Below, one piece after another: positions 32-7,668 of a DNA stretch of 9,262 bases. Source of the DNA: an archaeon (lineage in GTDB: Archaea; Asgardarchaeota; Thorarchaeia; Thorarchaeales; Thorarchaeaceae); the NCBI GenBank assembly GCA_024275415.1, contig JAJRZD010000074.1:1-9262 (forward strand). Reading direction: 5' to 3'. Each line of letters begins with the position of its first letter. Within the stretch, counting starts at the first letter, position 1. Position numbers and translations under genes: made by a program. The notes under the pieces were generated by a model. The model saw only the letters and a list, made by a program, of their open reading frames with translations, had not been told where the DNA came from and ran no database searches.

Positions 32-1873
32 CTATTCAGACATATATGGGTCCTCATCGATGTCTATCCCGAAGTACCCCATCTCTTCAAGAATGTCTTC
101 CATTGCTTCCGCACCTGAAACCCATGTCACCTTCCAATCTCCTTCAGGTGTCAAGATAAGTTCTACATCCGGAAGATCACCAAGCAGGTTGTGGTTCATC
201 TCGATGACATCTTGATATGCGCCTGTAAGAGCGATGACAAAATAGGAACCCTGTACATCCTTGAGCGACCCCACAGGTATCCCGAGCCCCATCTCTGCGT
301 TTGGCATTGCAATTGGTCTGTTGTCACGGGCAAACCACACCTCACCTACACCTTTCCTATGAAACTGGGATATCTCTCCATCAGAGTCGCAAGTGATGTC
401 CACAAGCCTGACCGTGGTTTCGGGTCTTAGATGGAGGTCTCTGACCGGGATGATGGGGAAATGCTGTTGAACCAGCACATGATCTCCAGCAGCATTGAAG
501 ACACTAAAGTTCCCGATGACGATGTGGTCAGGATACCAGATGTTTTCCAGTATCCTGTCTGACCTTAGGCTCTTGCTTCCCAATCGAGCAAGCTGACGCC
601 TCATCTCAGCACGAAGCTCGCCCACAAACCGCTCCTTGTCTAAGAGGCTCTCCAATGTTTCTGTTGTAGGTTTGGCGACTGAGAGATACTCATTCCAGAT
701 ATCCGCAAGCTCTGATATGGATGCAGCATCACTCAGTTTGTTTTTCCAATTCTCCATAACCTCCAGAAGATGTATTGGCAGTTCGTGTTCTGGTGGGAAT
801 ACTGATCTCACTTCAAGTGCTTTCACCACGACCATCGAGGACAACGCCGTAATTCCTCTTCCAGACTCGATCATGATGTCAGGCGGCTGTCGAGCGCTGC
901 CTATGTTCTTCACTTCATCTAGGATGCCCATTACGATTGCCTGTGCATACCGTTCCATCAAATTCGGGGAATGCGAACTCGTATAATCAATAGGCAAGCC
1001 ACCACCAAAGTCAATCCTCCGCAATTCCTTCAAGCCCCTCTCCCTTAGTTCGTAGAACACCCGAGTCATGAATCCGGCGAACCTTCCAAAGTCCTCGATA
1101 GCAGTGATTTGAGACCCAACATGTCCTAGAACCGTTGTGACACAGTTCTCGAAACCCTCCTTCTTGAGCAGGTCAATGACACTAAGAAGGTCGTGAATGC
1201 TCAGCCCGAACTTGGAATCCCTTCCTGCGGAGTGTGACCAATGTCCTCTGACCGTCAGATACGGCTTGATTCTAAGGACGAGAGATGTTTCTTGCGAACT
1301 CAGGATATCTACGATAAGTCTAGCCTCGTGGATTGACTCTATCGATATAGCAATGTTGTATCCATCTTTGACAAACTCCTCGATGGCTCGCAAATACTCA
1401 GGATCCTTCGCTCCATTGCAGATGATGAGCCTGTCCTTCTCGTCCTTAAGGACACTTCGTATGAGATACAATTCAGCCTTGGTTCCAGCCTCAAGCCCAT
1501 ATGACCTGTCTGCTTGCAGTACTGGGATAACGCAATCCTTCCGCTGATTCACCTTTACAGGATAAACAGCACCGAACTTCCCTTTATAGTCAAGTTCAGC
1601 CATGACTCTAGTGAAGGCGGACTTCAATTTGTGAATCTGGTAATGGATAAGCTGGGGCATCCTAAGTGTGAACGACGATGTGTATGCAGTCCTTGAGCCG
1701 TTTTCCGATTCGATCTTGCGGATGAGTTCGTCAAATGCAATGGTCTTGCCCATGAATCGGATGAACAGCTTGCCGTCATTCCCGATGTCAAGGAAATGGA
1801 GGTCATTCTTGCCAAGCCCATACACTACCCGCGACCTGTCTATTGTCCACTCTTTTGCCTTCACATGAGTCAC
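32..1873 (-). CDS. speA: Biosynthetic arginine decarboxylase (PLP-dependent, fold type III, SpeA family)
   Basis: 613-aa ORF with the SpeA motifs in order: YPVKVNQ (PLP lysine), GLEAGTKAEL, ICNGAKD, SKFGLS, HVGSQI, DFGGGLPIDY, ESGRGI, NFSVF, DITCDSDG, GAYQDV..NHNLLG. The annotated start is GTG at 1873. GTG at 1864 is at least as likely, because GGAAGTGA (1877-1870) lies 5 nt upstream of it. Confidence 0.93.
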   Translation of the reverse strand: MTHVKAKEWTIDRSRVVYGLGKNDLHFLDIGNDGKLFIRFMGKTIAFDELIRKIESENGSRTAYTSSFTLRMPQLIHYQIHKLKSAFTRVMAELDYKGKFGAVYPVKVNQRKDCVIPVLQADRSYGLEAGTKAELYLIRSVLKDEKDRLIICNGAKDPEYLRAIEEFVKDGYNIAISIESIHEARLIVDILSSQETSLVLRIKPYLTVRGHWSHSAGRDSKFGLSIHDLLSVIDLLKKEGFENCVTTVLGHVGSQITAIEDFGRFAGFMTRVFYELRERGLKELRRIDFGGGLPIDYTSSHSPNLMERYAQAIVMGILDEVKNIGSARQPPDIMIESGRGITALSSMVVVKALEVRSVFPPEHELPIHLLEVMENWKNKLSDAASISELADIWNEYLSVAKPTTETLESLLDKERFVGELRAEMRRQLARLGSKSLRSDRILENIWYPDHIVIGNFSVFNAAGDHVLVQQHFPIIPVRDLHLRPETTVRLVDITCDSDGEISQFHRKGVGEVWFARDNRPIAMPNAEMGLGIPVGSLKDVQGSYFVIALTGAYQDVIEMNHNLLGDLPDVELILTPEGDWKVTWVSGAEAMEDILEEMGYFGIDIDEDPYMSE

Positions 1874-1877
1874 TTCC
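1870..1877 (-). promoter_or_regulatory. Shine-Dalgarno-like GGAAGTGA for speA
   Basis: One mismatch to GGAGGTGA, 5 nt upstream of GTG 1864. Confidence 0.5.
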
Positions 1878-1891
1878 AGAGGATGATACCC

Positions 1892-6208: not shown

Positions 6209-6217
6209 GTCTTACAT

Positions 6218-6226
6218 TCACACTCC
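6218..6226 (-). promoter_or_regulatory. Shine-Dalgarno-like GGAGTGTGA overlapping the upstream stop codon
   Basis: The minus strand reads TAGGAGTGTGAATGTAAGACATG. GTGA ends 9 nt before ATG 6208. Confidence 0.55.
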
Positions 6227-7668
6227 TATTGGCTCAACTCCACTATCTCATCGGACATTCTCCTGATGAAATCGGTCACGTTTTGTTTCTTGTTCAGTAC
6301 AAAATAACTGTCATGAAAATAACCTTCGACCTGACCATCTGCTAATAGAATCAGCAGCGTCTGGCGAAGAATAGACTTGGGAACACCTGTTCCGACGGAC
6401 ATCCTATCAATTTCAATCCTGTCTGTTCCTTTCAACATATCTTTGAGAACTCTAGGGATTTCGCTGATTTTCTCTTTCGAAATGAGTCCAACTCTTTTTG
6501 GCTTTTTACTAGTCCGGATGAACACATTTCTTTCAAGGTAGCCTTCGATGTCCTTGCTCTCGATCATCGATTGAAGGCTTCTTCTCAGGTTGTACGAAGC
6601 TGGCCTAGGGAGGGTTCTCCTAAGAATCCTGTCAAGGTCATTGAGCTTTATCCTTCTATGCTTCTCCGTGATAGATAGGATACTCTCTTTGATGAACTCG
6701 TCAATCTTGTATTCTGCAAGTGGTTCTAGGACTGCTCCACATGAATCACACCTTTTTGCCTCGGGTAAGGCGGGTGCTCCACAGTTCCCACACTTGATTG
6801 CTCGCCGATAGAGGGTAGTCTTTGTAGACTCGATTTTTTGGAGGGTCTTTCTCTCATTTGGTGCTGCTCGGGTTGATGATACGATCTCCCAGAAGCTTAA
6901 TCGTCTGTCATCCGTACTAACAACAAGGTATGAGGTATCTGACACATCATCTGCGACCCCAGTGGCGAGAGCCTTGGGCCTGCCGGTCAGCTCGATGGTC
7001 GAAAGATGGTTCCCGTCAATATCCCAGATTGTCAGTTCCTTTTCTCTAGAACCACTGACAAAGAGCTTTCTTTTCCCGAATGTCAGGACTCCAAAGACTG
7101 ATAGAGATGTGCCAAGCCTCAGACGCTTCAGTTCGTATCCTGATGATGTGAGAATGGTAACATTTCCCTGACGGTCTGCCACGACAACCTCAAGGTCTTG
7201 GTCTTCTGTGATGTCTTCTAGCCAGACATCTGCAATGTTCCCATCGATCCTCCTGCTGAAGAGGGCGTCTTTGTCATCATTCCATAGGATGACACGTTTG
7301 TTCTGCAATGCCACAGCGACTTCTGCAGCATCATCGCCGTCCACATCCTTCGCATCACATGCAATAACGGTGCTTTCTAGCTCGATCTTCCACATGGGTT
7401 TGCCCTTATGGTCAACGACTAGGACTCTCTTGCCGACTCCTCCCACTACAGCGTCCTTCCCCTCACCATCGATATCGCCCACAGCGATGCAGCGTACCTT
7501 GCTGCTCCAGTTCCTGACCGACTTTAGAGACCCAGAGATGTCATAGATACGCATCTTATCCCCATAATCCAGAGCGAACACTCTTGTGCTAGATTGCCCG
7601 CTCTGATGGATATAGATACTGTAGGCATCTGATGAGATTGGGACCTTTGCCACTTCTCGCAATCTCAA
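6226..7668 (-). CDS. Soluble beta-propeller (FG-GAP/WD-like blades) + C4 zinc ribbon + two C-terminal winged-helix/PCI-like modules
   Basis: TTG start, with no signal peptide or TM segment. About six ~41-aa beta-rich repeats in aa 1-263, three with acidic loops (GDIDGEGKD, KDVDGDDAAE, EDITEDQDLE). CGNCG...CDSCG at aa 293-311. Two helical repeats end in a PCI-like wing (LQSMIESKDIEGYL, LLILLADGQVEGYF). The fold assignments come from motif recognition, not a search. Confidence 0.7.
   Translation of the reverse strand: MRLREVAKVPISSDAYSIYIHQSGQSSTRVFALDYGDKMRIYDISGSLKSVRNWSSKVRCIAVGDIDGEGKDAVVGGVGKRVLVVDHKGKPMWKIELESTVIACDAKDVDGDDAAEVAVALQNKRVILWNDDKDALFSRRIDGNIADVWLEDITEDQDLEVVVADRQGNVTILTSSGYELKRLRLGTSLSVFGVLTFGKRKLFVSGSREKELTIWDIDGNHLSTIELTGRPKALATGVADDVSDTSYLVVSTDDRRLSFWEIVSSTRAAPNERKTLQKIESTKTTLYRRAIKCGNCGAPALPEAKRCDSCGAVLEPLAEYKIDEFIKESILSITEKHRRIKLNDLDRILRRTLPRPASYNLRRSLQSMIESKDIEGYLERNVFIRTSKKPKRVGLISKEKISEIPRVLKDMLKGTDRIEIDRMSVGTGVPKSILRQTLLILLADGQVEGYFHDSYFVLNKKQNVTDFIRRMSDEIVELSQ

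Follow-up and report, generated by a model that had tools for sequence, protein, structure and literature searches.

The locus described here raises the question of how a pair of membrane receptors signals when neither carries an enzymatic transmitter. No extracellular sensor is more common in prokaryotes than the Cache-HAMP receptor, and, to our knowledge, every one that has been described drives a kinase, a chemotaxis array, a nucleotide cyclase, or a phosphatase. In a 9,262-nucleotide (nt) stretch of contig JAJRZD010000074.1, the whole of which is here referred to as “the window,” an operon of a Thorarchaeota (Asgard) metagenome-assembled genome (GCA_024275415.1; 92.9% complete) encodes two Cache receptors together with a soluble β-propeller protein (P0001) and a SpeA-type arginine decarboxylase (P0004). 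An earlier note on this DNA had proposed a kinase-free sensing system in which an extracellular small molecule is sensed by the receptor pair and relayed by scaffold assembly, with a possible link to agmatine or polyamine synthesis. In the best explanation of the evidence gathered here, the operon represents, in Thorarchaeia, a membrane sensing module that is found across Asgard archaea and has no enzymatic transmitter. We are confident that this module is real and functionally coupled; its reading as an amine sensor acting through a scaffold relay, taken as a whole, has in our estimate slightly better than an even chance of being right.

The four genes are co-oriented on the minus strand and separated by 17, 6, and 18 nt, in exact agreement between the earlier note and the open reading frame list. 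The Shine-Dalgarno (SD)-like sites that it placed at the upstream stops hold for genes 2 and 3, where AGGAG/GGAGGAG overlap or abut the stop codons; gene 4 has a weak GGGG alone. The alignment of gene 3 orthologs begins at residue 3, which makes the second ATG (M3) its probable start and would shorten the gap before it to 12 nt. Gene 2 encodes the receptor that we call CTV (P0002), with a TPR array and a vWA domain, and gene 3 encodes the receptor that we call CH (P0003), which has no output domain. The two are paralogs, as had been proposed, with 26% identity between P0003 and residues 1 to 401 of P0002 (E = 2e-35). Both belong to dCache_1 (PF02743; cut-off, 45 bits), which matches P0002 at 75.4 bits and P0003 at 65.1 bits, with transmembrane (TM) helices on both sides of the domain (residues 3 to 34 and 383 to 415 of P0002; 15 to 39 and 397 to 431 of P0003). 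Each Cache domain lies between two hydrophobic helices, and P0001 lacks such helices, which places the Cache domains outside the cell and the TPR-vWA arm and P0001 in the cytoplasm. HAMP (PF00672; cut-off, 25 bits) reaches 17.2 bits in P0002, a half match, and 23.0 bits in P0003; P...DEIG signatures are seen, and orthologs exceed the cut-off (31.6 bits in an f9 CTV and 30.8 bits in an f14 CH; family and genus codes such as f1, f9, and g10 are anonymous search labels, f1 being the window's own family). The arm of P0002 matches TPR_12 (74.2 bits) and several other TPR families, VWA_2 (50.2 bits), and, weakly, BatC of NCBIfam. Its vWA domain has the complete DxSxS ... T ... D signature of a MIDAS site, in which D717, S719, S721, and T792 show no variation among family orthologs and D821 shows none among 11 distant homologs.

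The absence of a kinase, methyl-accepting chemotaxis protein (MCP) domain, cyclase, or phosphatase, on which the earlier proposal turned, was upheld in all four proteins. None has a Pfam match at E ≤ 0.1 to HisKA/HATPase, MCPsignal, GGDEF/EAL, a cyclase, or PP2C, and NCBIfam kinase, phosphatase, and MCP matches are confined to TPR, TM/HAMP, or Cache parts, with scores far under the cut-offs.

The gene neighborhood is conserved, as had been predicted. Of the 24 other f1 genomes searched, 19 have a full-length match to P0001 and three have a fragment or a weak partial match; the 16 genomes searched elsewhere in the phylum yielded none of ortholog grade. The order propeller-CTV-CH-SpeA holds in 19/19 family loci (16 genera), as far as contigs reach, and is retained down to 37 to 44% identity. 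Of 301 genomes sampled from the phylum, 98 carry a full-length CTV homolog, and these are distributed over eight families. In a prokaryote-wide scan with one genome per species, every lineage-named record among the best 80 loci is Asgard: Thor-, Hermod-, and Heimdallarchaeota (including Hodarchaeum mangrovi), a Promethearchaeum sp., and the cultured Lokiarchaeum ossiferum. A CH paralog adjoins CTV in every lineage examined, where the contig permits, and the genes around this pair vary. The Heimdall/Hod type (f22) has speA divergent from CTV-CH and a convergent gene for a propeller/winged-helix (WH)/Cys-finger protein; f27 and f14 have CTV-CH-speA and f5 has a divergent speA, all three without a propeller gene. 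The Loki type (f24, L. ossiferum) and f9 have CTV-CH-propeller/Zn-ribbon and no speA. In Hermodarchaeia (f12), CH itself is fused to a Zn ribbon and HEAT repeats. By coordinates, speA lies within ~2 kb of CTV in 14 non-Thor genomes, co-directional or divergent, and propeller/Zn-finger genes are adjacent in five groups (f22, f24, f9, Lokiarchaeum ossiferum, and metagenome contig L050). SpeA of the pyridoxal phosphate (PLP) type was found only in CTV-holding families plus one f29 genome, and in 0 of 68 f9 and 0 of 7 f24 genomes. Survival of linkage through rearrangement is a classical sign of functional coupling, and we read it as such here.

Three further observations concern the composition of these loci. 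The L. ossiferum triad of CTV, CH, and propeller/Zn ribbon lies on CP104013.1 at about 2.560 to 2.580 Mb (L121, 8001 to 13326), with no speA. The Hermodarchaeia fusion protein (P0325) has 665 amino acids, with its Zn ribbon and HEAT repeats C-terminal to CH (L038, 293 to 2290, minus strand; L039, 8610 to 10358, plus strand; L109; L124); its Zn ribbon is 40% identical to that of P0001 over 52 amino acids, a partial hint that the ribbon of the partner protein may work next to the CH HAMP. In f14 Heimdall-labelled genomes without a propeller gene, a small RING-H2-like protein of 115 amino acids (P0246) is encoded beside CTV-CH-speA (L035, 11959 to 12306, minus strand; L120, 2444 to 2620; L145, 1779 to 2063).

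The ligand pockets provide the evidence for an amine. P0002 aligns Y216-x4-E221-x-W223-Y224 ... Y243 ... D272 with Y121-x4-R126-x-W128-Y129 ... Y144 ... D173 of the bacterial amino-acid receptor PctA, and P0003 aligns W215-x4-D220-x-F222-Y223 ... Y239 ... D269 with the same motif. Thus, against the dCache_1AA AA_motif (Y121, R126, W128, (Y129), Y144, D173), both proteins depart at R126 and retain the rest. In PctA, R126 binds the ligand carboxylate, and D173 and Y144 contact its amino group (PMC8915833); in amine sensors, the R126 position is not conserved and the amino-group ligands are retained (PMC10589655). The six CTV pocket residues vary little or not at all among 20 orthologs, with E221 in 20/20; in CH, position 220 is acidic (D or E) in 16 of 18 orthologs, and Y223, Y239, and D269 are invariant. 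We surveyed the pocket in 16 CTVs from nine lineages, 15 of which have a Cache domain. The canonical YDPRxRxWY occurs in three CTVs that are not beside speA, namely, the Loki type, a second Heimdall paralog, and metagenome contig L050; the CTV of the f24 Promethearchaeum sp., a close relative of L. ossiferum, has the canonical Arg pocket. In the speA-linked CTVs (11/11), the Arg position is occupied by E, F, or Q with a neighboring acid. The f9 CTV, without speA, has a non-Arg, degenerate pocket, and CH pockets show the same split between Arg and non-Arg by speA linkage. The polyamine link suggested earlier is therefore supported by the pocket: the Arg is lost in every speA-linked receptor and retained in the unlinked ones whose pocket is intact. 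The most economical interpretation is that speA-coupled receptors recognize a decarboxylated, cationic ligand, for which agmatine and polyamines would be the obvious candidates.

The linked enzyme is a SpeA-like protein that is apparently catalytically intact. P0004 matches Orn_Arg_deC_N of Pfam (88 bits), aligns over its full length with Vibrio SpeA 3n2o (E = 7e-58), and retains the PLP lysine and the SpeA motifs YPVKVNQ, HVGSQ, GGGLPIDY, ESGR, DITCDSDG, and GAYQ. Its scores for the NCBIfam SpeA models (NF003763/TIGR01273; PRK05354) are below both cut-offs (344.9 bits versus 369 and 322.5 versus 624.1). Archaea need agmatine for the agmatidine of tRNA-Ile and for polyamines. The genome, 92.9% complete, yielded no pyruvoyl arginine decarboxylase; because of this and because the motifs are intact, the agmatine of the cell probably comes from SpeA. 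A gene of the agmatinase family is located on another contig.

How the receptors might reach the rest of the operon is suggested by a predicted complex. The proposal that the TPR-vWA arm meets the propeller protein found support when residues 466 to 946 of P0002 were modelled with P0001: the interface score (ipSAE) was 0.61 to 0.62 in three runs, and the best of three controls reached 0.00. The runs agreed to at least 62%, and the pLDDT of the partners was 83 or higher. The docking score mark is reached by 58 of 80 solved complexes and by 2 of 110 mismatched pairs, calibration counts that apply only approximately here because the model was built with our own alignments. As we know of no solved complex of these families, a pass owed to a memorized complex is unlikely. 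The modelled contact places the P0002 helix at approximately residues 679 to 704, between the TPR array and the vWA domain, on one face of the propeller, with H693, R696, and E700 making the lowest-error contacts. The P0001 residues involved (10 to 16, 35 to 36, 56 to 59, 100 to 102, 122, 144, 166, 188 to 190, 208, and 253) recur at about one per 22 along the chain. Y16, Y35, S56, and R59 of P0001 are invariant in 35 orthologs, and the linker-helix motif of P0002 is invariant in 29. Among 16 CTVs compared, H693 is present in 9/9 with an adjacent propeller gene and in 0/7 without one, and a search with P0260 found no ortholog-grade propeller-WH gene in five genomes that lack the adjacent gene. 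Because the His tracks the propeller gene, docking through the linker helix gains independent support. The modelled docking uses the propeller, leaves the WHs free, and does not include the MIDAS site. An integrin-like arrangement, with the vWA MIDAS on the FG-GAP propeller, was considered and rejected, since the contact in this model is the linker helix. We regard a real P0001-P0002 contact as likely.

We propose that CTV and CH, as a pair, would bind an extracellular cationic amine that lacks a carboxylate, with agmatine or a polyamine as the leading candidate, in pockets derived from the amino-acid-binding type by replacement of the carboxylate-clamping Arg with Glu or Asp. The HAMP-like segments would pass the signal across the membrane and so reposition the TPR-linker-vWA arm of CTV, whose S-H-E-x-R-x3-E helix would dock on the propeller face and thereby hold or release P0001. 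The freed, basic Zn-ribbon/WH half of P0001 could then act on DNA or on another protein. Ligand-dependent capture or release of P0001, and possibly of SpeA, would, through speA in the operon and the divergently promoted deacetylase gene, match agmatine and polyamine synthesis to external supply. A direct route from the acidic C-terminal tail of SpeA (“DPY tail,” below) to the TPR array or the MIDAS site is also possible and would explain lineages without a propeller gene. In this scheme, the domain content, the synteny, the pocket change that goes with speA linkage, and the predicted interface that goes with presence of the partner gene are computational results, and we infer the identity of the ligand, the heterodimerization of CTV and CH, the direction of signaling, and the output on SpeA or transcription.

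The nature of P0001 bears directly on its output. Of the earlier description of a propeller/Zn-ribbon/WH partner with a PCI-like domain, the propeller, the Zn ribbon, and the WHs stand, and the PCI assignment, at 17.9 to 21.2 bits, remains below the 22-bit cut-off. The structure model (pLDDT, 85; pTM, 0.80) comprises a propeller of 24 strands, a helix, the Zn ribbon, two WHs, and a terminal helix, and the C-terminal part modelled separately has a pLDDT of 83.5. Zn_Ribbon_1 is matched by 34 of 35 P0001 orthologs. Assignment of P0001 as a PCI protein (PF01399) was rejected, with 21.2 bits for residues 266 to 480 versus 22 and no helical-repeat part before the WH; PCI is matched at E < 0.01 in 10 of the 35 orthologs and above the cut-off in a distant homolog, P0257 (23.2 bits). 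A Foldseek search with the C-terminal model returned no PDB match at E ≤ 0.001, and fold searches with the whole model returned generic propellers alone (IFT-A, Gβ, Tup1, NHL, and BBS) and no specific relative; the propeller matches include IFT-A, BBS, and KICSTOR chains. In a profile search, the Zn-ribbon/WH-WH module proved rare, with 14 representatives below 1e-10 among 1.8 billion and Zn-ribbon repeats making up the remainder. Among the matches listed, P0001 homologs are all Asgard labelled and nearly all from Thorarchaeota; two word-indexed homolog searches were filled with Thorarchaeota orthologs and are uninformative on distant relatives.

The most serious competing explanation is that P0001 is a membrane-sequestered transcription factor, held at the linker helix under ligand control and acting on the promoter shared by the operon and the divergent deacetylase gene, with a logic like that of CadC or of anti-sigma sequestration. 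P0001 carries a net charge of +14 across residues 266 to 397 (helix, WH1, and linker), its WH1 is Arg rich and conserved, and archaeal PadR/TrmB-type regulators are among its WH fold matches; the modelled docking leaves the WHs free. A shared CTTATAT(G/T) box and GGTGC recur in 13 orthologous intergenic regions, and the 69-nt region of the window is probably the common promoter region of the operon and the HDAC-like gene, single, conserved, and bidirectional. Furthermore, speA is divergent from the receptor genes in f22 and f5, a common layout of regulator and target. However, the top WH matches are protein-binding (cullin WHB, PCI, and APC2): in VIA-align, where WH matches had Z scores of 7 to 10 that leave protein- and DNA-binding types unseparated, the best structural neighbors of WH1 are cullin WHB (Z = 9.9) and eIF3 PCI (Z = 9.6), with archaeal PadR-like regulators at Z = 8.1. 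The f24 and f9 partners are a propeller and Zn ribbon with no recognizable WH, the speA-linked f27, f14, and f5 loci have no partner gene at all, and a search of 14 orthologous promoter regions for a conserved operator or palindrome found the TATA box and SD alone conserved. We consider the transcription factor unlikely as a full account. The conserved TATA-like box lies ~24 nt from the deacetylase ATG, a spacing that suggests a leaderless deacetylase transcript from a shared bidirectional promoter.

A second competitor dispenses with P0001 as the relay and has the receptors control or tether SpeA directly, the TPR array or the vWA MIDAS binding its acidic tail so that the activity or location of the enzyme follows receptor occupancy, with the propeller as an accessory. 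The C terminus of SpeA (window positions 32 to 55) is DEDPYMSE, and a (D/E)(D/E)DPY(M/F/I/V) tail is found in the sensor-linked SpeAs of f1, f27, f14, f12, and f5. It is missing in the sensor-less genomes G010/G282, G049/G092, and G086. Acidic C-terminal peptides and carboxylates are classical ligands of TPR domains and MIDAS sites, the MIDAS here is invariant and outside the predicted propeller interface, and the CTV-CH-speA trio occurs without a propeller gene; the tail may therefore be a docking peptide for either site. Against direct control, the speA-linked copies of the Heimdall type end in SYAKDSWNR, some sensor-less genomes (G114, genus g10) retain the DPY tail, and modules without speA retain the TPR-vWA arm and its MIDAS. 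As a marker of sensor linkage, the tail was thus set aside, the correlation being incomplete, and it remains a lead; direct control of SpeA as the whole explanation seems improbable to us.

A third possibility is general Asgard scaffold signaling apart from polyamines, in which an eukaryote-like adaptor network of BBS/ITFG2-like propellers, PCI/cullin-like WHs, RING-like fingers, and HEAT repeats would serve trafficking, the cytoskeleton, or protein modification, and speA would reflect co-inheritance or shared regulation. Modules without speA in Lokiarchaeia and f9 are consistent with this, as is the variety of output parts (the CH-Zn ribbon-HEAT fusion of Hermodarchaeia, the Cys8 finger of f22, and the RING-H2-like gene of f14). 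Propeller homologs exceed the cut-offs of BBS2_Mid, BBS7, and PHTB1_N, and P0257 is encoded beside an Arf-like GTPase and an SMCR8_C protein. Yet speA adjacency survives rearrangement in at least five families, and hitchhiking leaves the loss of the pocket Arg in every speA-linked receptor unexplained, so we assign this alternative a low probability. P0257 (L051, 9001 to 10371) is itself a distant propeller/WH-WH homolog with no CTV nearby; its WH2 passes the PCI cut-off, and the neighboring SMCR8_C gene is of the longin/DENN type. Chance adjacency without functional coupling is extremely improbable, given synteny in 19/19 family loci, linkage across Asgard classes despite changed gene order, and a predicted interface with clean controls.

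Returning to the amine-sensing scaffold relay, several points weigh against it. In G007, a deletion (L032, G007:C7 7979 to 8539) has left propeller remnants (residues 1 to 20 and 29 to 68) abutting CH remnants (residues 347 to 489), with CTV gone, and speA and the deacetylase gene are intact despite the loss of the sensors; several other Asgard genomes have speA and no module. SpeA thus does not need the module, and the sensors are accessory to it, which fits a regulatory role. Since Loki-type and f9 modules lack speA, the module is a general sensor for which polyamines are one use, and since the f27, f14, and f5 trio has no propeller partner, the propeller is not a universal link to SpeA. The output type of P0001 is not readable from the fold, because protein- and DNA-binding WHs match nearly equally (Z = 9.9 versus 8.1), and the MIDAS site has no predicted ligand. 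The dCache_1AM AM_motif consists of the shared aromatic pair and Asp plus an R103/D133 insertion and a cation-pi Trp (Trp155; PctD numbering), and the W/F-Y pair and terminal D are present in a comparison that covered the shared positions only. Finally, the counts of 11/3 for the pocket and 9/0 for the His are indicative, and their independence is overstated because the lineages are related.

Known systems resemble parts of this module. The bacterial dCache_1-HAMP amino-acid receptors PctA/B/C, Mlp24/Mlp37, and Tlp3 have the same fold and topology and supply the best sequence matches in the PDB (PctA 5ltx, E = 9e-12). In the pocket, PctA-type receptors share the W, Y, Y, and D positions with the Thorarchaeota pair, which has Glu or Asp in place of the carboxylate-binding Arg and whose output is a TPR-vWA arm (CTV) or nothing (CH) rather than an MCP, kinase, cyclase, or phosphatase. 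The dCache_1AM sensors (PctD, PacA, McpX, and the archaeal 3LIB kinase, the last among the PDB matches here) have likewise lost the Arg position and kept the aromatic pair and Asp. They were reported from only one archaeal phylum (Halobacteriota) and always with enzymatic or MCP outputs (PMC10589655). BatA-D likewise combine vWA and TPR on membrane-anchored proteins, but the Bat system has no Cache/HAMP sensor or propeller partner, and its function is poorly defined. The P0001 scores against PCI/cullin-WHB domains and BBSome/KICSTOR propellers are within the range of generic WH and propeller similarity, and PCI proteins have a helical-repeat N terminus on the same chain, whereas P0001 has none. 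In function, the module is analogous to CadC/LysP-cadBA of Escherichia coli, where a kinase-free membrane sensor of the external amine product governs a decarboxylase operon; there is no homology, and CadC itself is the DNA-binding protein (ToxR-like), whereas here the membrane protein is a TPR-vWA receptor and the WHs are on a separate soluble protein. Receptors that signal by docking rather than catalysis are known in principle, as in MCPs, anti-sigma factors, and CadC.

The eukaryotic alpha2delta and CACHD1 proteins likewise join dCache_1 and a MIDAS-type vWA in one polypeptide. The P0002 Cache (window positions 5393 to 5850) matches human CACHD1 (8s7c; E = 1.7e-8) and, weakly, alpha2delta-1; its similarity to CACHD1 does not exceed that to bacterial PctA. 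In the eukaryotic proteins the vWA lies inside the Cache and both are extracellular, whereas the CTV vWA is C-terminal and cytoplasmic; every eukaryotic dCache_1 protein carries a vWA (PMC8915833). Matches of CTV homologs to VWA_N are weak and sub-threshold (L035, 7715 to 9118; L047, 6495 to 9257). The earlier note knew of no described system with this layout, and none was found in the literature on Asgard or Thorarchaeota Cache, HAMP, vWA, TPR, and arginine decarboxylase; the module also goes unmentioned in papers on the two-component systems and chemoreceptors of archaea and on Cache ligand motifs. The sensor half is an ordinary dCache_1 member, and no Cache-HAMP receptor described so far has a comparable output half. 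A bolder idea, which we think quite doubtful, takes the module for an Asgard invention whose Cache receptor would transmit its signal through the regulated assembly of scaffold parts of eukaryotic type (vWA, TPR solenoid, BBSome/ITFG2-like FG-GAP propeller, PCI/cullin-like WHs, and RING-like fingers); it would then be linked evolutionarily to alpha2delta/CACHD1 or to nutrient-sensing scaffolds and be a prokaryotic forerunner of phosphorylation-independent receptor-adaptor signaling.

Coordinates of the operon, its domains, and its divergent neighbor in the window
Feature	Position	Strand	Description
Gene 1 (P0001), 480 amino acids	6226..7668	-	Propeller, Zn ribbon, and two winged helices; cytoplasmic
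Gene 2 (P0002), CTV, 946 amino acids	3368..6208	-	TM, dCache_1, TM, HAMP-like segment, TPR array, linker helix, vWA
Gene 3 (P0003), CH, 489 amino acids	1892..3361	-	TM, dCache_1, TM, HAMP; without output domain
Gene 4 (P0004), SpeA, 613 amino acids	32..1873	-	PLP-dependent, biosynthetic-type arginine decarboxylase
FG-GAP/BBS2-like β-propeller of P0001, residues 1-265	6874..7668	-	Beta-prop_CGLA, 36.7 bits; FG-GAP_3, 22.7 bits
C4 zinc ribbon of P0001, residues 291-315	6724..6798	-	C293, C296, C307, and C310 invariant, 20/20
Tandem winged helices of P0001, WH1 320-386 and WH2 398-460	6289..6711	-	Predicted structure; basic linker between
Receptor 1 (P0002) pocket	5393..5563	-	Y216, E221 (at PctA R126), W223, Y224, Y243, D272; alignment to PctA 5ltx
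Linker helix between TPR and vWA	4091..4153	-	S-H693-E-x-R696-x3-E700; predicted propeller-binding element
vWA domain, cytoplasmic	3509..4081	-	VWA_2, 50.2 bits; intact MIDAS (D717, S719, S721, T792, D821)
Receptor 2 (P0003) pocket	2555..2719	-	W215, D220 (at Arg position), F222, Y223, Y239, D269; alignments to 3c8c and 7k5n
Intergenic region, 69 nt, divergent	7669..7737		TATA-like CTTATATT (7707-7714); SD GGTGC (7679-7683)
HDAC-like deacetylase gene (P0005), 359 amino acids	7738..8817	+	Divergent neighbor of the operon

The divergent gene is a conserved neighbor of the operon within the family, found upstream in at least 15 of the 19 loci, and two further loci end before that position. P0005 matches PF00850 (E = 3.6e-77), and its best PDB matches are HDAC6 and bacterial HDAH (class II/HDAC6-like); a role as an acetyl-polyamine or protein-lysine deacetylase is possible. 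In the sensor-less G010 (L034) and G282 (L137), speA and the deacetylase gene are direct divergent neighbors, and these two may be the older pair. Beyond the deacetylase gene, the window ends within a lipoyl synthase gene of the LipS2 type, of which it covers the 5′ part (8915 to 9262, plus strand; NF053743, E = 5e-9) and which is also downstream of the deacetylase gene in several relatives. On the other side, nine family loci have a co-directional PP-loop ATPase gene (tRNA-modification/QueC-like hits) after speA (L018, 10614 to 11426; L025; L015; L024; L028; L026; L017; L020; and L022), and the window contig ends before that position. Among Asgard speA genes, one encodes a SpeA with a C-terminal extension of ~290 amino acids (G049:C1:1149636-1151399; L138) and has a second speA 1.2 kb downstream, and the speA beside CTV at G244:C139:9290-11098 has an in-frame TGA.

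In Thor-, Hermod-, Heimdall/Hod-, and Lokiarchaeia, among the closest prokaryotic relatives of eukaryotes, this receptor pair ends only in protein-docking modules and a soluble partner. The pocket change that accompanies speA linkage provides a simple way to predict whether a receptor is specific for amines or for amino acids, and the presence of the triad in the cultured Lokiarchaeum ossiferum brings its expression and interactions within reach of experiment. If the reading proposed here is true, archaea would possess a kinase-free receptor-adaptor pathway with a concrete class of ligands, agmatine and polyamines.

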